Origin: a bacterium
GTDB lineage: Bacteria; Patescibacteriota; Minisyncoccia; Phycocordibacterales; UBA6899
DNA length: 64,000 bases
Reading direction: 5' to 3'
Assembly (NCBI GenBank): GCA_043756865.1
Contig: JAYUQG010000024.1
Location: forward strand, 91,259-155,258
Shown: positions 11,273 through 62,733 of the stretch, piece after piece
How the letters are laid out: each line of letters opens with the position of its first letter
Numbering within the stretch: the first letter of the stretch is position 1
Translations under genes and position numbers: made by a program
Notes under the pieces: model-generated
Told to the model about the DNA's origin: nothing
What the model saw: the letters and a program-made list of their open reading frames with translations, nothing else
Databases searched by the model: none

Positions 11273-11399
11273 ATATAAACATGCGTGCTCCAGTCACACC
11301 AATGAGCACAGTGGATTTATAGCATATTCTGTCTCAAAATCAAACTTGGATGTCATTTGCATGCGGTTAGGAATTAATCACCAGTCCTAAGTTCACAGA

Positions 11400-11519
11400 C
11401 AGGACTCGGTCACGAGTTACTAAGTCTTTTGGTGCGAAGGCCACCAAAAGCCCAAGTACTCCCGACCCCGACTCGCCCGTCTCACAAGGCTTCGACATGG
11501 CTCCGTCTTTCGATTCCTG
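11400..11519 (-). repeat. copy Y of the structured repeat family (see 36030-36186), inside the tRNA operon spacer
   Basis: The minus strand reads caggaatcgaa...cttttggtg-gccttcg-caccaaaag-acttagtaactcgtgaccgagtcctg. The 3' 26 nt match 36152-36178 apart from one mismatch and one 1-nt indel. Confidence 0.6.
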
Positions 11520-11552
11520 ATGAAAGTGCCATTGGGCGCTTTTTTGTAATTG

Positions 11553-22260: not shown

Positions 22261-22938
22261 ATGATTTATTTCGATAATGTCACCAAGCTGTACTCCGACC
22301 ACGCAGCACTTTCCGATGTGACGTTTGGAATTCAAACGGGGGAGTTCGTCTCTATCGTGGGGCATTCTGGCGCCGGCAAGACTACTATGCTTCGTCTGCT
22401 GATGGTGGAAGACAAGCCGACAAGTGGGGCGATTTTTTTTGAATCTACAAATGTGCACCGTATCAAGTCTTCCAGCGTGCCAGAGTATCGACGCAGAATT
22501 GGGACGGTTTTTCAGGATTTCCGCTTGCTTCCAAATAAGACCGCTTATGAAAACATCGCCTTTGCCATGGAAGCTGCGGGACGCCCCGACGAGGAGATTC
22601 ACTCCGATGTTCCTCAAGTACTCGAACTTGTCGACTTATCATCGAAGGCACTGCATTTTCCTCACGAACTTTCAGGCGGTGAAAAACAGCGCGTCGCTAT
22701 CGCGCGCGCGATCATAAGCCAGCCTGATGTGTTGATAGCTGACGAGCCGACAGGAAACCTTGATCCCGTGAATACATACGACATCATCCAGATACTCAAA
22801 AAGATAAACGACATGGGAACGACGATTATTTTGACGACACACAATAAGGGCATTATTGATGCATTGAAACGACGGGTGATTACGATGGAGCATGGAAAGA
22901 TTATCCGTGACGACCAGCACGGCAAGTATATTCTCTAG
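22261..22938 (+). CDS. ftsE: cell division ATP-binding protein FtsE
   Basis: Walker [10 protein letters not shown], signature [14 protein letters not shown] and Walker [13 protein letters not shown] are present. The size (225 aa) and N-terminus [11 protein letters not shown] are typical of FtsE. Confidence 0.9.
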
Positions 22939-22981
22939 TATTTGGGCGCACTACTCGCCCTTCCTTTGGCAAATTTGGAGG

Positions 22982-23037
22982 ACGTATCACTCATACGCCC
23001 TCGCAAATATTGCCGCAGTCCAGGACTTCGTACTGCG
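22982..23037 (+). repeat. copy c of the ~54 nt intergenic repeat (see 786-839)
   Basis: Sequence is acgtatcactcatacgccctcgcaaatattgccgcagtccaggacttcgtactgcg. It has hairpins cgtat/atacg and gcagt/actgc. Confidence 0.65.
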
Positions 23038-23097
23038 ACCAATTTTTATTAGCGGTATCCGCCTTAGAAAAATGAAGTACTCTTGTGGTGCATCCCA

Positions 23098-23156
23098 AAT
23101 ATTAGAGAATACACGAGTTCTTGCGCCTCGTAATGCGCTGAGAATATTAGAGAATA
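23098..23156 (+). repeat. two exact 14-nt direct repeats AATATTAGAGAATA, 45 nt apart (possible operator pair)
   Basis: The copies lie at 23098-23111 and 23143-23156, upstream of the membrane-protein gene at 23195. Confidence 0.5.
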
Positions 23157-23194
23157 TGCGTGACCGTGATTTTGGTGTGCTATATTTTGGATAC

Positions 23195-24394
23195 ATGGAA
23201 CAAGAAAACAGAGTCCAACACATGAAGCAAAACGGCTCAAATATTTTCCTTGGAATTGTAGCGATACTCACGGGGGTATTCGCATTGCTTGTTGGTTTCG
23301 GCCTCATTCAAACTGACGGGAATGACAATGATGTTCCTCTCGGGATTGCGCGCATTACAGGAGGGATCTTTTTTGTTGCAGGAGTGATGGCGCTTGGAAT
23401 AGGAAAGTTTCCCCCACGTTTATACAACATACTGGGTGCAGTCCTCATGACCCTTTTTTCTTTTATAGCGGGATGGGTGGCATTCGGACCCGGCAACAGA
23501 GTGTTTGGTGGTGCTGGACCAATGTTGGGACGCATGGTTTTTGGATTTTCGGCATTTATTTGTGTTTATATGGCTATAGTGGCATGGAAGCGAGTTTTTA
23601 TGAGCGAAGTAAATGAGGGGAATAAAACCATAGTTATTGATAAGCCTAAAGGATTTTTTACTCTGTTTTTATTTTTATTTCCGTTTATGGTTTGGCCTTT
23701 TGTTGTGTTTTTCTTTGTTCAATCTGACGGGTCGTGGAAGTTCCCCACACTTGATGTCCTGCCGACAACCTCGTCGACAATGCAGCAACATGAAGAATTA
23801 TTAAACCGACAAGGATTCACCCTCCACACTGCGGAAAAGAATGGTACACATATATTCGACGGTGCCATTATTGTCGCGTTTGACAAACAAACAGGGGCGA
23901 TCGTGGGCGAAGCGATTATCGACATGGATGGTAATGCACAATTTATCCTACCGTACGGACATTATGAGTTTCGTCCGCATCCTCTTAAGGAAGATAAAGT
24001 TGTTGGCAGTCTTGATTTTGATATGTTTGCCACAAAACTACAACCAACCATACTGTATCTTTCCGAGATAGGCCCACATGGGTTCGGAACACCACTAAAG
24101 AGTTGCGAAGAAAAAAAGGATGTTCTTGCTGTGGCTGTCGAAAATAAGAATTACTGCGATGATGATGGGGACTGTAAATTTCTGAATACTTATTTTGGCT
24201 GCCCGTATCTTGTAAACAGACATGCTGATCTTGAGATATTTAAGGATCGTGATGAAGATGTTTTAAAATCTTGTCCGACTATTGTGGATATGTTGTGTCC
24301 TCTTTCTTCTCAAAATCTGAGGTGTGAGAAACATTCTTGTGTTTCAGGTTCTCGGGGAAATGGGGAAAGTCAAACAATTGACAATGCTATATAA
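23195..24394 (+). CDS. hypothetical membrane protein with a Cys-rich extracytoplasmic C-terminal region
   Basis: Start is ATG 23195 or 23222. The 5' 300 nt of the tracked ORF cover intergenic repeats. It has at least 5 TM helices, then DGNAQFILPYGHYEF (carboxypeptidase-regulatory-like strand pattern) and a CxxxxDC-rich tail. The gene is A+T-rich. Confidence 0.6.
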   Translation: MEQENRVQHMKQNGSNIFLGIVAILTGVFALLVGFGLIQTDGNDNDVPLGIARITGGIFFVAGVMALGIGKFPPRLYNILGAVLMTLFSFIAGWVAFGPGNRVFGGAGPMLGRMVFGFSAFICVYMAIVAWKRVFMSEVNEGNKTIVIDKPKGFFTLFLFLFPFMVWPFVVFFFVQSDGSWKFPTLDVLPTTSSTMQQHEELLNRQGFTLHTAEKNGTHIFDGAIIVAFDKQTGAIVGEAIIDMDGNAQFILPYGHYEFRPHPLKEDKVVGSLDFDMFATKLQPTILYLSEIGPHGFGTPLKSCEEKKDVLAVAVENKNYCDDDGDCKFLNTYFGCPYLVNRHADLEIFKDRDEDVLKSCPTIVDMLCPLSSQNLRCEKHSCVSGSRGNGESQTIDNAI

Positions 24395-30150: not shown

Positions 30151-32034
30151 ATGACACAAGACACCGCACTTACAATTATGAAAACCGGGGCAAATATTTT
30201 CCTCACTGGTGAGCCGGGGTCTGGAAAAACACATACCGTGAACGCATATGTGCGGTACCTGAAGGAGCATGGTATTCAACCTTCCATCACTGCGTCGACG
30301 GGGATTGCCGCAACACATGTCGGAGGTATGACGATTCACTCATGGAGCGGTATTGGGATACGTCGCGCACTCTCCGAATATGACCTTGATGCAATGGCCT
30401 CGAACGAGGGGCTGGTCCGCCGACTCGCGAAAGCCAAAGTGCTTATCATCGACGAAATCTCGATGCTTGATGGCACGGTGCTCGACATGGTCGACCAAGT
30501 CTCGCGCACGATAAGGATGAAACAAGAACCCTTTGGCGGGCTACAGGTGATTTTGGTGGGTGACTTCTTTCAGCTCCCGCCGATTGCAAAGCAAGGCGAA
30601 CGTGCGCAGTTTGCGTTTGATTCAAAGGCGTGGAAACTCGCCAATCCAATTATTTGCTATCTTTCTGAACAGCATCGCCAAGAAGACACGGCGTTTCTCT
30701 CGACCTTGGGTGCGATACGTCGCGGGGAATTGGAGGACAGTGTCTTTGAGTATATTGGTGAGCGTAACGTGGCACCGGGTGAACACCCACTCGATATTCC
30801 CCAACTGTACACACACAATATCGACGTCGACAAAAAGAACACCATAGAACTAGAAAAGCTCACCAGCGCACCTGTGGTCTTTCTGATGGAAACAAAGGGG
30901 AGTACGGGGCGGGTAGAACAGTTGGTAAAAGGATGCCTCTCGCCAGAGGAATTGGTCTTGAAGGAAGGTGCGTCTGTCATGTTTACCAAGAACAGCTTTG
31001 ATTCAGGTTATGTAAATGGCACACTCGGTACGGTCATCGGGTTTGATGCTGACAACGGATTTCCTATCGTGGAAACACGTGATGGCGATGAGATAACGGC
31101 GTTTCCGTCGGAGTGGGCAGTGGACGATAGTGGCAAGGTCCTCGCGACCATCACGCAAGTGCCACTACGACTCGCATGGGCTATCACGGTGCACAAAAGC
31201 CAAGGACTCTCGCTGGACGCGGCGGTCATGGACCTCTCACGTGCGTTTGAGTACGGTCAGGGGTATGTCGCACTCTCACGTGTTCGTGAATTCGCTGGTC
31301 TGCATATTCTTGGTATCAACCAGCGCGCGTTTGAGGTACATCCACTCGTCCTTGAACGCGATCAAGCATTCCGCGAACGCTCCGACGATGCAGAGCGTGG
31401 TTTTGAAGACATGCCACCGTCTGATCTCCTGGCACTCCACAATAATTTTATTACTGCTATGGGGGGAACGATTCATGCCGTCGCGCTTGATGAAGCGACA
31501 AAAGCCCCGAAGATTTCTACATATGAACAAACACTCGCACTGGTCGCAGACGGAAAAACTCTTGCAGAGATTATCGCACTTCGCGGGATGACCGAGGGTA
31601 CAATTGTGAAACATCTCGAAGAGCTCGCGCTTTCGGGCAATCTTCCGCCCCTCGAGATGGCACAATTCACAGGACTCGAGCAGCGTGGGCTCGACGATAT
31701 ACGGGAAGCCATCCTCGGCGTAGAAGGAGGTTACTTAAAGCCTATTTATGAAGCGCTCGATGAAGCCTATTCTTATGAAATGATTCGACTTGTGCGCTTA
31801 GCCACAGGCGCTCTGGCAAAGCGTAAAGAAGAGAGCACAGAGCAAAAAGTCGCTCGTAAAGAACCAGCCACTGCGAAGCCAGACAATCTTGGTGCCAAAT
31901 GGTCAACGGAAGAGGAGTCACGTCTGAGAGAAATGTTTCAATCGGGAATGAAGACTGCGCACATCGCCCGCGAGCTCAAGCGTCAATCGGGAGGTATCCG
32001 TGCGCGACTCAAGAAGCTCGGGTTGCTTGAATAG
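30151..32034 (+). CDS. Pif1/RecD-like SF1 DNA helicase with a C-terminal helical/HTH-like extension
   Basis: Walker A GEPGSGKTH, Walker B LIIDEISML, and motifs VGDFFQLPP and ITVHKSQGLS are present. Confidence 0.85.
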   Translation: MTQDTALTIMKTGANIFLTGEPGSGKTHTVNAYVRYLKEHGIQPSITASTGIAATHVGGMTIHSWSGIGIRRALSEYDLDAMASNEGLVRRLAKAKVLIIDEISMLDGTVLDMVDQVSRTIRMKQEPFGGLQVILVGDFFQLPPIAKQGERAQFAFDSKAWKLANPIICYLSEQHRQEDTAFLSTLGAIRRGELEDSVFEYIGERNVAPGEHPLDIPQLYTHNIDVDKKNTIELEKLTSAPVVFLMETKGSTGRVEQLVKGCLSPEELVLKEGASVMFTKNSFDSGYVNGTLGTVIGFDADNGFPIVETRDGDEITAFPSEWAVDDSGKVLATITQVPLRLAWAITVHKSQGLSLDAAVMDLSRAFEYGQGYVALSRVREFAGLHILGINQRAFEVHPLVLERDQAFRERSDDAERGFEDMPPSDLLALHNNFITAMGGTIHAVALDEATKAPKISTYEQTLALVADGKTLAEIIALRGMTEGTIVKHLEELALSGNLPPLEMAQFTGLEQRGLDDIREAILGVEGGYLKPIYEALDEAYSYEMIRLVRLATGALAKRKEESTEQKVARKEPATAKPDNLGAKWSTEEESRLREMFQSGMKTAHIARELKRQSGGIRARLKKLGLLE

Positions 32035-32061
32035 CTATCCCGAGTTATGCACACCCACCCC

Positions 32062-32089
32062 TTGCGTAATTCTACACAGGGTGTATATT
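32062..32089 (+). promoter_or_regulatory. sigma70-like promoter of repeat unit A1
   Basis: TTGCGT-16 nt-TATATT has the same architecture as the tRNA promoters in this window. Confidence 0.45.
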
Positions 32090-32095
32090 TCATTC

Positions 32096-32150
32096 ATCGA
32101 GACGATACGTCGTCTCAATTTAACAAAGCCTGTCACCCGACGGGCTTTTT
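32096..32150 (+). ncRNA. candidate ~55 nt sRNA, copy 1 (inside repeat unit A1, 32043-32154)
   Basis: Downstream of the promoter lies a 7-bp hairpin gagacga-tacg-tcgtctc (32099-32116). It is followed by the linker aatttaacaaa and a terminator gcctgtc-accc-gacgggc + tttttt. There is no ORF, and both neighbouring genes end or point away. Confidence 0.45.
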
Positions 32151-32177
32151 TACGCCTCGATAAAGTATTAAGTATTT

Positions 32178-32226
32178 CAGCGCGAAGCGCAGAGATAGTG
32201 AGTCCTCGAGCGACAACGCCAAATAG
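32178..32226 (+). repeat. repeat B, copy 1
   Basis: cagcgcgaagcgcagagatagtgagtcctcgagcgacaacgccaaatag is about 80% identical to 33667-33714. Confidence 0.55.
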
Positions 32227-32254
32227 AAAGAAAAAACCGCCTTTTAGAGGCGGT
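32227..32254 (-). terminator. rho-independent terminator of sbmA
   Basis: The minus strand reads accgcc-tctaaaa-ggcggt followed by ttttttt. Confidence 0.7.
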
Positions 32255-32262
32255 CTGGTTTT

Positions 32263-33591
32263 TTAAGCTACTTCGTCGATTTTCTCAAGCGGGCGATCAT
32301 TGATTGCACGTTCAAGTGAACTCAAACGTTTGTAGATTGAGAGCATTTCGACAATAGTCGGCCAATTGAGGACCAAATATTGAAAAGAACTTTCTACTCT
32401 TCCGAATGCGCGCACAATCTGCTGCATGACTCCAAGGGTGAATCCTGCAAGTATCGCCTCTTTGGAAAGCAGGGTTGGTGCGAGTGCGATGTAGGGAACG
32501 AGTGCACCCGCCTGTAGATAGCTATACCGCACCATGTTGAAGTACATGTAGTGAAAGTACATCCGAAAGTAGTTTGTTCTCACGTGACCAAACAGCTCAC
32601 GCAATGTCTTCGGTTGTGCCCGAGTTTCGTCCTCTTCGCCGAATACTAGCTCCTTGCGGTAAGCGTGCTCCACTCGTTGGTTGTGGAATTTCAATGTCGG
32701 CAGATAATAACCCGTCAGTGCGAGCACAATCGTACCGAAAACAGACCAGCAGACTGCAATAATCACCAATCCATGGGCGATCGGTCCGATGACGGGTATC
32801 TCCGAGACAAACTTCGTCGAGAGCATCCAAAGAATCGGCAAGAACGCAATGAGCGTCATCACCGCATCAAGCAGTCCCGCACCCAATCCTTCCATGATGT
32901 CTGCAAAACGCATCGTGTCGTCTTGAATACGTTGGGACGCTCCTTCGATGTGACGGACTTTGCTCCATTTCCCAGTATAGTACTCGTTCATCGCGGTGCG
33001 CCACCGGAAGTTGTAGTGCTGGATGAAATAGTTTCCCAGCGTTCTCACAATCACAAACACCGCTGCAATGGTGAAAAAGGTGGCCAGACGTCCGTAGTAC
33101 TCAGTATTTTCGATAGTTCCGGGGTTCGCAAACATGGTTTGAATCATGTTGTAAAACCCACCGAACCATTCGTTAATCATGACATCGAGTTGCACCTGAA
33201 ACCACGTGAAAAAGATAATCACAGCGGAACCAAGAAGCGACCACTTCAGCCATTTGTGTGAACTACAGAAGTACCAGCAGGCAATAAATATTCCGTAGCA
33301 AGGGATGAGGAATTGGTATGCCCAAAAAGTCACCGCGCTTCCGAGCGCACTTATCTGGGATTGCACCAACTTTACTCGCTCGGGGTCTGTCTTTGCACCG
33401 AATCGCGCCGCTTCCTTTTGTAGCGTTTCGAGTAATCCGTAGTCGAGTTGAGCAAAGCCGAACCATTGACCAACGGAATACATTTGACCTGTTTGCTCTC
33501 CTAATGTGAACCAAAACACCAAGCAGGCAAGTGCCCATATCACAAATGAGCCAAAGAAGAGGAGCGGCCTCGGAAAGAAGGAATTAAACAT
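32263..33591 (-). CDS. sbmA: SbmA/BacA-family peptide (antimicrobial peptide/cofactor) transporter
   Basis: It is collinear with E. coli SbmA as I recall it. Examples: MFNSFFPRPLLFFGSFVIWAL vs MFKSFFPKPGTFFLSAFVWAL, FRWRTAMNEYY, RHIEGASQRIQDDTMRFA, FHNQRVEHAYRKELV, YFHYMYFN and SIYKRL. Confidence 0.9.
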   Translation of the reverse strand: MFNSFFPRPLLFFGSFVIWALACLVFWFTLGEQTGQMYSVGQWFGFAQLDYGLLETLQKEAARFGAKTDPERVKLVQSQISALGSAVTFWAYQFLIPCYGIFIACWYFCSSHKWLKWSLLGSAVIIFFTWFQVQLDVMINEWFGGFYNMIQTMFANPGTIENTEYYGRLATFFTIAAVFVIVRTLGNYFIQHYNFRWRTAMNEYYTGKWSKVRHIEGASQRIQDDTMRFADIMEGLGAGLLDAVMTLIAFLPILWMLSTKFVSEIPVIGPIAHGLVIIAVCWSVFGTIVLALTGYYLPTLKFHNQRVEHAYRKELVFGEEDETRAQPKTLRELFGHVRTNYFRMYFHYMYFNMVRYSYLQAGALVPYIALAPTLLSKEAILAGFTLGVMQQIVRAFGRVESSFQYLVLNWPTIVEMLSIYKRLSSLERAINDRPLEKIDEVA

Positions 33592-33666
33592 TGGGGGACC
33601 CCTTTTGTGTCGAGAACTTTGTCTGTCAAAAGTCTAAAGGAAGGCGCAAATATAGCAACTGCATTA

Positions 33667-33714
33667 AGCGCGAAGCACCCGGATAGTGAGTCCGCGAGCG
33701 GTAACGTCAAATAG
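33667..33714 (+). repeat. repeat B, copy 2 (directly abuts unit A2)
   Basis: Sequence is agcgcgaagcacccggatagtgagtccgcgagcggtaacgtcaaatag. Confidence 0.55.
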
Positions 33715-33739
33715 CCCCCAAGTTATCCACACCCACCCC

Positions 33740-33767
33740 TTGCGTAATTCTACACAGGGTGTATATT
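33740..33767 (+). promoter_or_regulatory. sigma70-like promoter of repeat unit A2
   Basis: The sequence is identical to 32062-32089. Confidence 0.45.
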
Positions 33768-33773
33768 TCATTC

Positions 33774-33828
33774 ATCGAGACGATACGTCGTCTCAATTTA
33801 ACAAAGCCCGTCTCTGACGGGCTTTTTT
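33774..33828 (+). ncRNA. candidate ~55 nt sRNA, copy 2 (inside repeat unit A2, 33721-33831)
   Basis: Copy 2 is identical to copy 1 through the hairpin and linker. Its terminator stem is gcccgtc-tct-gacgggc, and the differences from copy 1 keep pairing (C-G in place of the T-G wobble). Confidence 0.45.
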
Positions 33829-33856
33829 ACGTCTCCACAACCGCCACAGCTTTTTC

Positions 33857-33887
33857 AAGAAAAAAACCGCCAACTGTTGATGGCGGT
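33857..33887 (-). terminator. rho-independent terminator of the 33902..34621 gene
   Basis: The minus strand reads accgcc-atcaacagtt-ggcggt followed by ttttttt. The stem sequence is the same as in the sbmA terminator. Confidence 0.65.
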
Positions 33888-33901
33888 TTATTGTGTTTCT
33901 G

Positions 33902-34621
33902 CTATTTACGCAGTTTGCGAATGAGCGGTTTCACGAGTATGAGGGTGATGTTGAGTGCAATCAGGCAAAGCCACAATCCAAATAGGTATTTCATGGCTGT
34001 GAAAAACCAGTCATGTTCAGTCCAGATTTCTTTGAGCGTGAACACGAAGTAGTCTGGGTCATGCCACGCGAATGCGACGATTGCTGCCACAAAAAGTGAG
34101 GTGAGGATGATTTGCCCTCGTGGTTCCTCCACAAGCCACGCGCCGATGCGCTCGAGACGATTCGTGATTTTGCTCCACCCCTCCGCCGTTCGTACGGCGA
34201 TGGGTGTCCAGAATGCACGGAGTGCTTCGTGAATTGGATCCCATGCCATATGCCAAATCTTGGTGACCCAACTTGCGGTAGCATTCCACATGCGGGCAAG
34301 TCTGTCGCCGAGTCTCAGCACGCTCACGATGGCCACTATGGTGAGGGCGACCTGACCCAAGATTGCAAAGGGAAGTCCCACAATAAGGAGCGGAATACCC
34401 CACCATGCACCTGCAGAAATTCGTTCAACAAATGCACTGCCGAGCAGTAGCGCAAAAGAGAGAATCGCCACTCCCCATGCAGGTAAGAGTGGCATTTCAT
34501 GGCGGAGCCAAAATTTGAGCCCCACAAACAGGTGGAAGTAATAAGCAATTCCTGATTTCTCGGGAACTGATTCATGCCTTGCGAGGTACGGACGCTCAAA
34601 GAAAAACCGTGCAATGTTCAT
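33902..34621 (-). CDS. hypothetical multi-TM membrane protein
   Basis: It is a 239 aa ORF with hydrophobic helices. No family was recognised. Confidence 0.55.
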   Translation of the reverse strand: MNIARFFFERPYLARHESVPEKSGIAYYFHLFVGLKFWLRHEMPLLPAWGVAILSFALLLGSAFVERISAGAWWGIPLLIVGLPFAILGQVALTIVAIVSVLRLGDRLARMWNATASWVTKIWHMAWDPIHEALRAFWTPIAVRTAEGWSKITNRLERIGAWLVEEPRGQIILTSLFVAAIVAFAWHDPDYFVFTLKEIWTEHDWFFTAMKYLFGLWLCLIALNITLILVKPLIRKLRK

Positions 34622-34758
34622 GTGATGAACCCCTTTTTATCTTTCTGCAAACTACAACGATAAATGGTTATTGTAAAGAGCTTGTCGTCATGTGGTGTAT
34701 TGCACTCTCCGCCCCCACCCCGTATCATTTGCACCAGCATGTACAGCGGGAAAAGGTA

Positions 34759-35055
34759 ATGGGCAAAATGGATACATGGCGTATGACCGAAACAGGCACG
34801 GTCGGAGAATGGATACAGGCACCCAATGGTGAATTTGTGGGGACTATTGTCTCCGACTGTGGCGATGTGTACATCGCAGGAAGCAAGGACTGCCCTGATC
34901 CCTACGATGGCGCGCTCATTACCAAAGGCACGCGCGTGCGCTTCGTCCCCGAGCAAAAGGGGAACAAGGTGAAAGACATGGACACGGGTGTTCCGTACTC
35001 TTGGGGCGTCGCTCGAGAAATCGCGATTGTTCCTAAAACACTCAAGCACCGTTAG
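34759..35055 (+). CDS. small hypothetical protein (98 aa), possibly an OB-fold/cold-shock-like beta protein
   Basis: ATG at 34759 gives MGKMDTWRMTETGTVGEWIQAPNGEFVGTIV... The upstream part of the tracked ORF overlaps the divergent gene start. Family assignment is weak. Confidence 0.45.
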   Translation: MGKMDTWRMTETGTVGEWIQAPNGEFVGTIVSDCGDVYIAGSKDCPDPYDGALITKGTRVRFVPEQKGNKVKDMDTGVPYSWGVAREIAIVPKTLKHR

Positions 35056-35989: not shown

Positions 35990-36002
35990 TTACCACACAA
36001 AA

Positions 36003-36029
36003 ACACTCTGCCAAGAGTGTTTTTGTTTT
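36003..36029 (+). terminator. rho-independent terminator of tRNA-Gln
   Basis: acactct-gcca-agagtgt followed by ttttgtttt. Confidence 0.75.
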
Positions 36030-36186
36030 GTGGTAACTCGCGGGTCAGGGACTCGAAATGCGTAAGGTGGTATACAAGACGAGCGAAGCGAGTGCTTGTC
36101 ACCGAGCCGGGGTCGAGAGCACTTTGTAGTTCGGTGGCCTTGCGCCGAAATACTTAGTGACTCGTGACCGAGTCCCTGACCCGCAG
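36030..36186 (+). repeat. copy X of a structured repeat family with 16-bp terminal inverted repeats derived from, or identical to, the tRNA-Gln 3' end
   Basis: gcgggtcagggactcg (36040-36055) is the exact reverse complement of cgagtccctgacccgc (36169-36184). An internal hairpin ttcggtg-gccttg-cgccgaa lies at 36130-36149. The unit is homologous to 11400-11519(-) and, at its ends, to 37154-37331. Confidence 0.65.
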
Positions 36187-36199
36187 CAATGTCGCAACG

Positions 36200-44034: not shown

Positions 44035-44178
44035 TCTTGCTCGTTTATCAAAAAAACCGCTACTTGGCGTTGCCGCTCGAAGACTCACTTTTTTTGCGCG
44101 CTTTGCGCGGTAGATACAAAAAGCCATCACGTGGTTTTTTGGTAACACGGTCTCTATGTATTTTGCTAGAATACATTA

Positions 44179-44529
44179 ATGGAAAAACACCGTATCTACA
44201 CAATGAGCTTTGCTAGTGTTTATCCATTGTATGTCGCCAAGGCAGAGAAAAAGGGGCGTACGAAAAAAGAGGTGGATGAGGTCATCCGTTGGCTGACGAG
44301 GTACAGCCAGAAAGAATTGGGCACGCAACTGAAAAAACAAACAGACTTCGAGACGTTTTTTGGTGAGGCACCCGAAATGAATCCTGCGCGAGCATTAATT
44401 ACCGGTGTTATTTGTGGTGTGCGATTAGAAGATATTGAGGAAGCGCTTATGCGCGAAATCCGTTATCTGGATAAACTTATCGACGAGCTGGCTAAGGGGC
44501 GTACGATGGAGAGGATTTTGCGAAAGTAA
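44179..44529 (+). CDS. DUF2200 family protein
   Basis: The N-terminus [36 protein letters not shown] is characteristic of the family. Confidence 0.75.
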
Positions 44530-61365: not shown

Positions 61366-61440
61366 AGTCCTCTCTTAACAAGTCTGTCATCAGAAAACAC
61401 CCACAGTGCTACTTTTGCAAGTTTGCGCGAAGCACACAAT

Positions 61441-61460
61441 AAAAAAGCCCCCTAGGGGGC
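61441..61460 (-). terminator. rho-independent terminator (minus strand)
   Basis: The minus strand reads gccccc-tagggggc followed by tttttt. Confidence 0.65.
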
Positions 61461-61479
61461 TTTGTGTACAAAAGTAGAT

Positions 61480-62733
61480 TCAGTCTTTCCCGACTTCGCG
61501 AAGCATCGGTGCTTCGGCTGGGCCAGTCGGGGTGGGGGTGCCACCACGGCGAGAGACAACTTCGTCTTCGATTCTGTTCTTGGCTTCGATATTGTCGTAG
61601 ATGTAGCCGAAACGCTTCAGGAAGGCGTTGAAGACATCATGCAGGATGCGCAACGTGATGATCTTGCGGATTGCGCGCAGGCCCATGCTGAAAGGCCAGA
61701 AGAAGACCCACAGGAACAGTTGCCCCTTGTGTTCGTTCTTCGTCGTGGGGCTACGCTTCGTTGCCTTGCCGATGATGTAGTCGCTGAACTCGGGAACGAG
61801 GACGGTTTTCTCGGGCGTCGAACGACCAAGTTGCTGCGACCAGTACTTCAGGTCTTCGTCGGTGAAGGGGGCGTCTTCGGCTCCCTCTGCTTTCGTGAAC
61901 GCAGCCCTGAGTCTGTTTTCTTCGTCAGAGATGGCTTTCAGACCATACTGCACATCTTGCGAGTTGAAACTGCCCATCGAGACAGCCTTGGTGGGCAAGG
62001 GGTCATCTTTCGACAGTCCCGTACCCTTGCGGAAGTCCGTGCGCAGCTTGACCAGTGCGTCCATGCTCTCCTTGAGTTGGAGCGCCAGTTGCGTCTTGGT
62101 CTCGGTGAAGAGTTCGTGCAGGAAGGCACTGAAGTCTTTCCAGCGGTACACGCTCCAGCCGATGCCGATGGCCACCCAGATGGCGATTGCAGGCGCTGCC
62201 TTCCATGACATCAGCGTTTCCCAGATGGGAAGACCACCGTAGTTCAGGAATGCGAGCATGCCGACGAAAATCAGGGTTGTGGCGAACTCGTGCGTGTCGA
62301 TGCGCTCGCGCTGTCCGCGCTTGCTTTCACGCCAGAACCACCCGATACGCGAGTCGGAATATTCCGACAAGATACCGATTGCAGCCATGGGAATGAAGAG
62401 CACGAGGGCAAACGCGAGCCAGCCGATGGTGCCCATGCCGACCAAGAGCCAGCCACCCGCAAAGAGTGCGCCGAATGCAGCGGTGACACCAACGAACAGG
62501 CCTTTGAGAAAGCCGGTGTTTTCAGATTGCGCTGTGGTTGTTTCCGCGGCGACGCGGACGACGGTTTCAGGTGCGCGGGAGGGTGTGGACTGCGCAGCAG
62601 TACCCGATGGTGTTTGCGCATTTGCCACGACGGTAGCCGTTGCAACAGTACTTGCTGTCGTCGCGTCAGCGGGCGGTTTGAAGACAAACCATCCTGCTAT
62701 CGCAAGAACTATTACGAAAAACAAAGTCTTCAT
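61480..62733 (-). CDS. hypothetical multi-TM membrane protein in a visibly G+C-rich segment
   Basis: The 417 aa protein has the signal/TM sequence MKTLFFVIVLAIAGWFVF and a T/A-rich linker. Further features are several TM helices and a minus-strand terminator. The long plus-strand ORFs here are read as GC-driven shadows. Confidence 0.6.
   Translation of the reverse strand: MKTLFFVIVLAIAGWFVFKPPADATTASTVATATVVANAQTPSGTAAQSTPSRAPETVVRVAAETTTAQSENTGFLKGLFVGVTAAFGALFAGGWLLVGMGTIGWLAFALVLFIPMAAIGILSEYSDSRIGWFWRESKRGQRERIDTHEFATTLIFVGMLAFLNYGGLPIWETLMSWKAAPAIAIWVAIGIGWSVYRWKDFSAFLHELFTETKTQLALQLKESMDALVKLRTDFRKGTGLSKDDPLPTKAVSMGSFNSQDVQYGLKAISDEENRLRAAFTKAEGAEDAPFTDEDLKYWSQQLGRSTPEKTVLVPEFSDYIIGKATKRSPTTKNEHKGQLFLWVFFWPFSMGLRAIRKIITLRILHDVFNAFLKRFGYIYDNIEAKNRIEDEVVSRRGGTPTPTGPAEAPMLREVGKD

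Follow-up and report, generated by a model that had tools for sequence, protein, structure and literature searches.

The closest described systems are, as we take it, the sibling trans-acting sRNAs with Rho-independent terminators, such as Qrr1-5, PrrF1/PrrF2, OmrA/OmrB and LhrC1-5. The three short units described here, termed A1, A2 and A3, share several traits with them: a predicted RNA length in the range of ~50-110 nt, a promoter-like site of their own, a 5’ hairpin followed by a single-stranded region and an intrinsic terminator, and the lack of a coding function. As in these systems several paralogues reside in one genome, some of them adjacent and near-identical and others diverged. In contrast to the sibling sRNAs named above, the A family has no sequence or Rfam relationship to any of them and is confined to one CPR genome. 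Moreover the comparison of A1/A2 with A3 shows its candidate seed to be the less conserved part, a region usually preserved among sibling sRNAs.

Genes for sRNAs are also located at or inside the 3’ end of protein genes, from where they are transcribed by their own promoter, as in the case of DapZ and MicL. A1 and A3 are similar in that they lie directly behind a co-directional stop codon and exhibit a promoter-like site and a terminator of their own. However, the promoters of DapZ and MicL are located within the coding sequence and their terminators are shared with the mRNA, which does not apply to the A units. A1 and A3 are insertions that separate the stop codon from the ancestral terminator, and A2 is free-standing.

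A different class is given by short intergenic repeats with promoters or terminators, such as the Correia elements of Neisseria, the pneumococcal RUP and BOX and the enterobacterial ERIC and REP sequences. The A units resemble these by a size of ~100-150 nt, by their dispersed intergenic location, by a presence that varies between close relatives and by the potential to supply promoters, terminators and stable hairpins. They differ by the lack of terminal inverted repeats and target duplications, by a copy number that is very low so far, by boundaries that coincide with the putative transcription unit and by helices which appear to covary on one strand.

Two near-identical units on either side of sbmA

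Analysis was based on a stretch of 64 kb, in the following referred to as the window. Together with adjoining sequence the examined part amounts to ~70 kb, the whole contig having a length of at least 184 kb. The proteins flanking the A units are closest to those of Candidatus Lloydbacteria MAGs (Patescibacteria/CPR), with ~70-80% protein identity to the nearest relatives. SbmA is 81% identical to its homologues in Lloydbacteria MAGs while the Pif1/HTH_40 helicase shows ≤ 74% identity to its closest homologues. Judged by these proteins the host is an uncultivated Lloydbacteria-like CPR (Patescibacteria) bacterium. The features of the locus are as follows.

30151-32034, plus strand: Pif1/HTH_40 helicase gene, its stop codon just before A1
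32039..32163, plus strand: unit A1, whole copy, starting 4 nt past the helicase stop codon
32062..32089, plus strand: promoter-like site of A1, TTGCGT-16 nt-TATATT (-35 at 32062-67, -10 at 32084-89, predicted start A32096)
32099..32116, plus strand: hairpin 1 of A1, GAGACGA-UACG-UCGUCUC, 7 bp with UACG tetraloop (predicted fold)
32117..32127, plus strand: unpaired AU-rich linker of A1, 11 nt, AAUUUAACAAA, candidate seed (predicted fold)
32128..32151, plus strand: intrinsic terminator of A1, GCCUGUC-ACCC-GACGGGC followed by U6, -14.2 kcal/mol
32176..32226, plus strand: repeat B1, 51 nt, 12 nt downstream of A1
32234..32256, bidirectional: ancestral terminator common to the helicase gene and sbmA, the sole element between the two genes in relatives
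32263..33591, minus strand: sbmA/bacA-family transporter gene (PF05992, E 3.5e-131), enclosed by A1/B1 and B2/A2
33664..33714, plus strand: repeat B2, 2 nt upstream of A2, at -73 to -123 from the sbmA start codon
33717..33840, plus strand: unit A2, whole copy, back to back with the sbmA promoter and converging on ORF 33902-34621
33740..33767, plus strand: promoter-like site of A2, TTGCGT-16 nt-TATATT, predicted start A33774
33777..33794, plus strand: hairpin 1 of A2, same as that of A1 (sequence and fold)
33806..33828, plus strand: intrinsic terminator of A2, GCCCGUC-UCU-GACGGGC followed by U6, -15.1 kcal/mol
33902-34621, minus strand: ORF without Pfam match, convergent with A2

Hence the order is helicase gene (plus), A1, B1, bidirectional terminator, sbmA (minus), sbmA promoter, B2, A2, a terminator and a four-gene minus-strand cluster including tfoX, and tRNA-Gln. 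The synteny of helicase gene, sbmA and tRNA-Gln is kept in the nearest relatives (L002 and L003). There, the spacer between helicase gene and sbmA comprises only ~40 nt with a single bidirectional terminator, and neither A nor B is found upstream of sbmA. We conclude from these sites that A and B are insertions specific to the lineage of the host.

A1 and A2 are direct repeats of ~125 nt. A preceding sequence-only reading had described them as a near-identical pair of about 95% identity over about 111 nt, and this was borne out by blastn (95.5% over 112 nt) as well as by a repeat finder (96 nt at 97% plus 25 nt at 88%). The identical run, given there as 79 nt, in fact measures 81 nt (32050-32130 corresponding to 33728-33808). 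The window holds only these two copies, where the chance expectation for 64 kb is none, and a covariance model search with filters off revealed no further one. Logan unitigs of run SRR23617209, an independent assembly, are identical to the window, and their breaks coincide precisely with the borders of the shared core (L001 covers 32101-33757, L085 ends at 32079). Both copies are thus real features of the organism rather than products of assembly. Promoter-like site, hairpin 1 and linker are free of any difference between A1 and A2. The copies deviate at two positions upstream of the -35, in the tail past the U tract and in the terminator, where one position of the 5’ arm (U·G in A1, C-G in A2) and the loop (ACCC vs UCU) are altered. 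As had been proposed from the letters, the terminator stems differ and yet remain paired: the only stem change keeps its pair while the terminator loop varies freely.

The promoter-like sites of A1 and A2 had been likened to those of the tRNA genes. Indeed three tRNA genes of the window share this layout (tRNA-Met TTGCGA-17-TATAAT, tRNA-Thr TTGTAA-17-TATATT, tRNA-Gln TTGAAA-16-TATACT). A strict sigma-70 scan did not call the A site because its -35 matches at only 3/6 positions; among the A units the -35 is weak in general, with 3 or 4 of 6 positions matching. There is no co-directional gene upstream of A2, the plus strand at this position being antisense to sbmA, and A2 would therefore need a promoter of its own. 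A perfect palindrome, TACAC-AGG-GTGTA, overlaps the -10 of A1 (32073-32085) and A2 (33751-33763). It is not conserved in A3 and could be an operator.

The minimum free energy folds of both copies consist of hairpin 1 and the terminator (-25.0 and -25.9 kcal/mol, z-scores -7.2 and -6.5). They agree with the earlier description of a 7-bp UACG hairpin, an unpaired linker and a canonical terminator. The opposite strand of the A units folds less well. In addition, the tail of A1 behind the U tract, CGCCTCGATAAA (32153-32164), is complementary to the predicted 5’ end of the RNA (32093-32104), and in read-through transcripts this pairing could close a long stem. In the tail of A2 only CGTCTC is complementary to the predicted RNA 5’ end.

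A coding role had been denied to the units from the beginning. ORFs 32000-32266 and 33759-34052 run through them, but the frames diverge past the loop indel, and the ORF through A1 has zero homologues among 5.8 billion proteins. An antisense ORF of 20-22 aa within the A units was dismissed as a gene since its frame is not conserved and it is absent from A3. The same applies to a type I toxin-antitoxin locus: the sole small ORF (MNEIYTLCRITQGVGV..., minus strand, 32035-32097) is not hydrophobic, lacks a Shine-Dalgarno sequence and is missing from A3. The genes downstream of A1 and A2, i.e. sbmA (32263-33591) and ORF 33902-34621, are both located on the minus strand, again in line with the sequence-only reading. 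Each of the two units is followed by a second terminator and then by a convergent gene, and an attenuator, leader or riboswitch was rejected on this basis. The A units do not belong to a curated Rfam family either, as they gave no match at gathering score.

A pairing of the linker with the start codon of sbmA had been suggested as well. The complementarity at 8 of 9 positions is present. It is, however, not special: with RNAduplex the linker reaches -5.6 kcal/mol at the sbmA initiation region and thereby rank 38 among the translation-initiation regions of 71 crude genes. We rejected this pairing accordingly.

A third copy, covariation and distribution of the family

A1 and A2 served to build a covariance model (R1), with which the window and fetched Patescibacteria loci were scanned. 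The scan yielded one more strong match, A3, on the Logan contig L082 (60-2, 40.3 bits, E 5e-8).

L082 92-6, corresponding to window coordinates of about 68262-68348, minus strand of L082, same strand as A1/A2: unit A3 (R1 match at 60-2)

L082 overlaps the right end of the window without a mismatch in 6874 nt, which places A3 in the same genome. It is located ~4.3 kb past the right end of the window and 34 kb from A1/A2. A3 follows an ABC transporter operon, with ~40 nt between the stop codon of the co-directional transporter gene (PF16949) and the -35 hexamer of A3, and the Logan unitig ends right after the U tract.

From the -35 to the U tract A3 is identical to A1 at 61/92 positions (66%). 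The promoter-like site TTGCAA-16 nt-TAAATT is in register with those of A1 and A2, and the start region reads AUCAAG in A3 and AUCGAG in A1. The hairpin, AAGGUGA-UUCG-UCGCCUU, again has 7 bp and an UNCG loop. It is followed by an AU-rich linker of 11 nt, UAUAUUUAAAA, which is partly conserved with respect to A1/A2 (AUUUAA and AAAGCC are common to them), and by the terminator GCCCCU-CCCA-AGGGGC with U5. The terminators of all three copies thereby consist of GC-rich stems of 6-7 bp (10 bp with flanking A-U pairs) followed by U5-U6. The similarity of A3 to A1/A2 sets in a few nt ahead of the -35 and ceases at the U tract. Because it is bounded by these two elements, the conserved unit appears to be the transcription unit itself. 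Conservation is best in the promoter hexamers, around the start site, at the apex of the hairpin and at the base of the terminator.

An alignment of A1, A2 and A3 has 97.6% of cells paired across both helices. Double changes that retain pairing occur in 3/14 pairs. Two of them are located in hairpin 1 (A1 vs A3: G-C to A-U and A-U to G-C), which shows one wobble change in addition, and one in the terminator (G-C to C-G). Covariation of the stems had been named as a check. Slid controls gave double-change pairs in 0/6 cases, but the observed covariation score was reached by 20/500 column shuffles, and there are three sequences only, two of which are nearly identical. On the other strand the U·G pairs in the hairpin of A3 and in the terminator of A1 would turn into A·C mismatches, which favours the plus strand.

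A second covariance model (R2) was built from all three sequences. With this model no additional copy was obtained from the tested Patescibacteria loci or from the window, where filters were switched off as well. A model match at 61438-61481 is an ordinary terminator behind a gene and not a family member. An examination of the genome and of relatives had also been called for in advance; its yield was the third copy in the same genome, while the corresponding sites of the relatives are empty. All three copies are absent at the orthologous sites of the nearest relatives. In the syntenic loci L002, L003 and L086-L093 the A1/A2 family was not detected by blastn, motif or covariance model scans. 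At the A3 locus the spacer of the closest relative (L096, with a permease of 70% identity) is 43 nt long and gives no model match.

Searches of larger collections were negative, too. GTDB representative genomes gave no match to an exact 33-mer of A, JGI metagenomes none to a pattern with 24 specified bases, and neither did a pattern search of IMG/VR. These scans needed exact patterns, such that diverged A homologues would escape them. Blastn against phages and plasmids retrieved only a chance match of 28 nt in the terminator region. Of the Rfam families, tRNAs alone reach the gathering score in the window. When E values up to 10 are allowed, the A region shows only sub-threshold matches driven by the terminator. 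By sequence, the A family is a candidate new RNA family which is so far private to one CPR genome.

Repeat B and further observations around the units

A1 and A2 adjoin copies of a second repeat, B, a family of ~51 nt with the core AGTGAGTCnnCGAGCGnnAACGnCAAnTAG and three copies in the window. In addition to B1 and B2 these comprise the following.

44060..44110, minus strand: repeat B3, no A unit nearby, ahead of the DUF2200 gene (44179-44529) at -69 to -119

B2 and B3 are alike in orientation relative to the start of the downstream gene (sbmA and the DUF2200 gene, respectively) at about -70 to -120. One more copy is found in an unrelated JGI metagenome contig (L094 1250-1350), where it overlaps the 3’ end of trmD and is followed by two tandem partial units of 26 nt, each ending in ATAG. 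B1 is nearer to this copy (1 mismatch in 30) than to B2. In one frame the copies of B read ...SESxSxNxK-stop, which in L094 is the C-terminus of TrmD. As a coding tail B was rejected for the window, since the respective frames stay open over no more than 21 and 55 codons and contain no gene. A structured RNA was likewise rejected as RNAalifold was unconvincing for either strand. A resemblance of the 3’ tail of A to a degenerate B unit was not significant by shuffling (p about 0.2-0.3).

The orientation of sbmA varies between the loci compared. Relative to the helicase gene it is inverted here (window 32263-33591) and in L002/L003, as opposed to the Lloydbacteria loci L086 (13830-14819) and L092 (12026-13351), where it is on the helicase strand. 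The segment from sbmA to tRNA-Gln is variable in gene content, and ORFs 33902-34621 and 34618-35049, both without Pfam match, are found, among these loci, in the window only. sbmA itself apparently has an extended -10 promoter, TGCTATATT (33649-33657, minus strand), conserved in L002 and L003. A -35 is not recognisable at this putative promoter; B2 fills the -35 region and the sequence upstream.

Separate from A and B, an element of ~170-250 nt was observed immediately 3’ of tRNA genes.

35991-36187, plus strand: element after tRNA-Gln
about 11385-11551, minus strand: element after tRNA-Met
L086 15780-16205 and L003 1-116: element in relatives

It starts with a terminator-like hairpin, followed by the tRNA 3’ end in antisense, by a conserved core and by the tRNA 3’ end once more as a direct copy (GAGTCCCTGACCCGCAG for tRNA-Gln). 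The element is missing in L002 and present twice in tandem in L086. Its core forms a 23-bp hairpin with three compensatory pairs (n=3 sequences), and the tRNA strand is favoured by G·U pairs that do not vary. Rfam gave no match to the element, which may represent either an unknown structured RNA or a miniature integrative element that targets tRNAs. Furthermore a direct repeat of 51 nt with 88% identity connects 784-834 and 22980-23030. As the latter copy lies inside ORF 22892-24394, this is probably a conserved motif of paralogous genes.

Interpretation of the A units

The comparison of the three copies establishes, as far as sequence goes, the architecture of the units and its predicted stability, and likewise that a paralogue of 66% identity has kept this architecture with compensatory changes. 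We infer from this level that the units are transcribed and that the resulting RNA acts in trans. With moderate confidence we favour the interpretation that A1, A2 and A3 are paralogous genes of a lineage-specific family of small non-coding RNAs, i.e. sibling sRNAs. The initial proposal, a sRNA of ~55 nt in two copies, gains from A3, which keeps the promoter spacing, both helices and the UNCG loop, but a homologue outside of the genome was not found. Several traits of sRNA genes are present: a promoter-like site at the right distance from the predicted 5’ end and a Rho-independent terminator at the 3’ end in all three copies, as well as an intergenic, non-coding location. Conservation in related species, a further trait, was not observed among the relatives’ loci and public collections searched.

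According to this model each A unit would be transcribed on its own and span ~90 nt. Transcription would start from a sigma-70-type promoter, TTGCrw-16 nt-TAwATT, at the conserved A in AUCrAG and give rise to a RNA of ~52-56 nt. This RNA would begin with the 5’-proximal 7-bp hairpin capped by an UNCG tetraloop, continue with 11 nt of AU-rich single strand and end with the Rho-independent terminator. The most likely mode of action would be base-pairing through the AU-rich linker, while the ends of the RNA would be protected by the terminator and the stable 5’ hairpin. Alternatively, a protein might bind the conserved hairpin apex GAU-N-CGUCG, given that the linker as candidate seed is only partly conserved in A3. 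That two copies flank sbmA may be an accident of the landing place. The adjacency of A1 and A2 to repeat B is not explained by the sRNA model.

The main rival is a small non-autonomous intergenic repeat, mobile or spread by recombination, that carries promoter-like and terminator-like sequence. Its hairpins would be kept for reasons at the DNA level or as terminators, and the RNA would not be regulatory. We regard this as rather unlikely although it accounts for a number of observations. Like in MITEs, the three sites occupied here are all empty in the nearest relatives (~40-nt spacer in L002/L003, 43-nt spacer in L096), and three insertions into otherwise compact intergenic spacers are a repeat-like behaviour. 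The near-identity of A1 and A2 suggests recent spread or gene conversion, both of them abut B, a dispersed repeat that forms short tandem units in another organism, and the Logan contig stops immediately past A3. However, the ends of the units carry no inverted repeats, the only inverted repeats being the two hairpins and a 12-nt internal pair in A1 only. Target-site duplications around the copies are not found and the flanks differ between them. Neither a transposase nor an integrase is present within 26-50 kb (the scanned ORFs lie between 26 and 45 kb of the window), and ~70 kb contain only three copies. Moreover the homology of A3 has its limits at the -35 and the U tract and not at element ends, the best conservation falls on promoter hexamers, start site, hairpin apex and terminator base, and the compensatory changes together with the G·U pairs suggest that selection acts on the RNA of one strand.

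If the promoter-like hexamers were incidental, the A units might instead serve as a cis-acting module of gene 3’ ends, be it an extra terminator, a hairpin that stabilises the mRNA or an insulator. The position of A1 4 nt past the helicase stop codon, that of the A3 -35 ~40 nt past the co-directional ABC transporter stop codon and the strength of the terminators agree with such a role, which we nonetheless consider improbable: A2 has no co-directional gene upstream, relatives manage with one bidirectional terminator that is still present in the window (32234-32256), and a pure terminator has no need for -35 and -10 elements kept in register in the diverged A3. An action of A1/A2 as DNA appears least plausible, with only a slight chance of being correct. 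As direct repeats of 81-125 nt they would allow RecA-mediated loss or amplification of sbmA, a gene for peptide uptake, or they would be scars of its inversion; they bracket sbmA exactly, and the orientation of this gene varies among Lloydbacteria (L086 and L092 vs the host and L002/L003). But L002/L003 carry the inverted sbmA without A or B, hence these repeats did not cause the inversion, which would require inverted repeats while A1/A2 are direct. A3 is unrelated to sbmA in any case, and the unitig assemblies, in which a deletion variant would not show up, give no sign of one. The related idea of attL/attR sites of a sbmA cassette was discarded since sbmA is located between the helicase gene and tRNA-Gln in L002/L003 without the repeats; an integrase near sbmA was not found. 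As a side effect, excision of sbmA through the direct repeats A1/A2 could occur. A combined scenario, to which we assign a small likelihood, would have a promoter-to-terminator sRNA gene spreading as a module into gene 3’ flanks, the first sibling-sRNA family to be described from Patescibacteria, with the element also providing direct repeats for a reversible loss of the bracketed sbmA.

Our literature search found no study characterising regulatory small RNAs in CPR bacteria, whose regulatory RNAs are essentially uncharted. Returning to the preferred interpretation as sibling sRNAs, a three-member family with a defined putative promoter, an UNCG hairpin and a terminator is a concrete target for metatranscriptomic validation. 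It also is a test case for the origin and duplication of sRNA genes in very small genomes. If A turned out to be a selfish repeat instead, it would show the insertion of promoters and terminators next to transporter genes in CPR bacteria.
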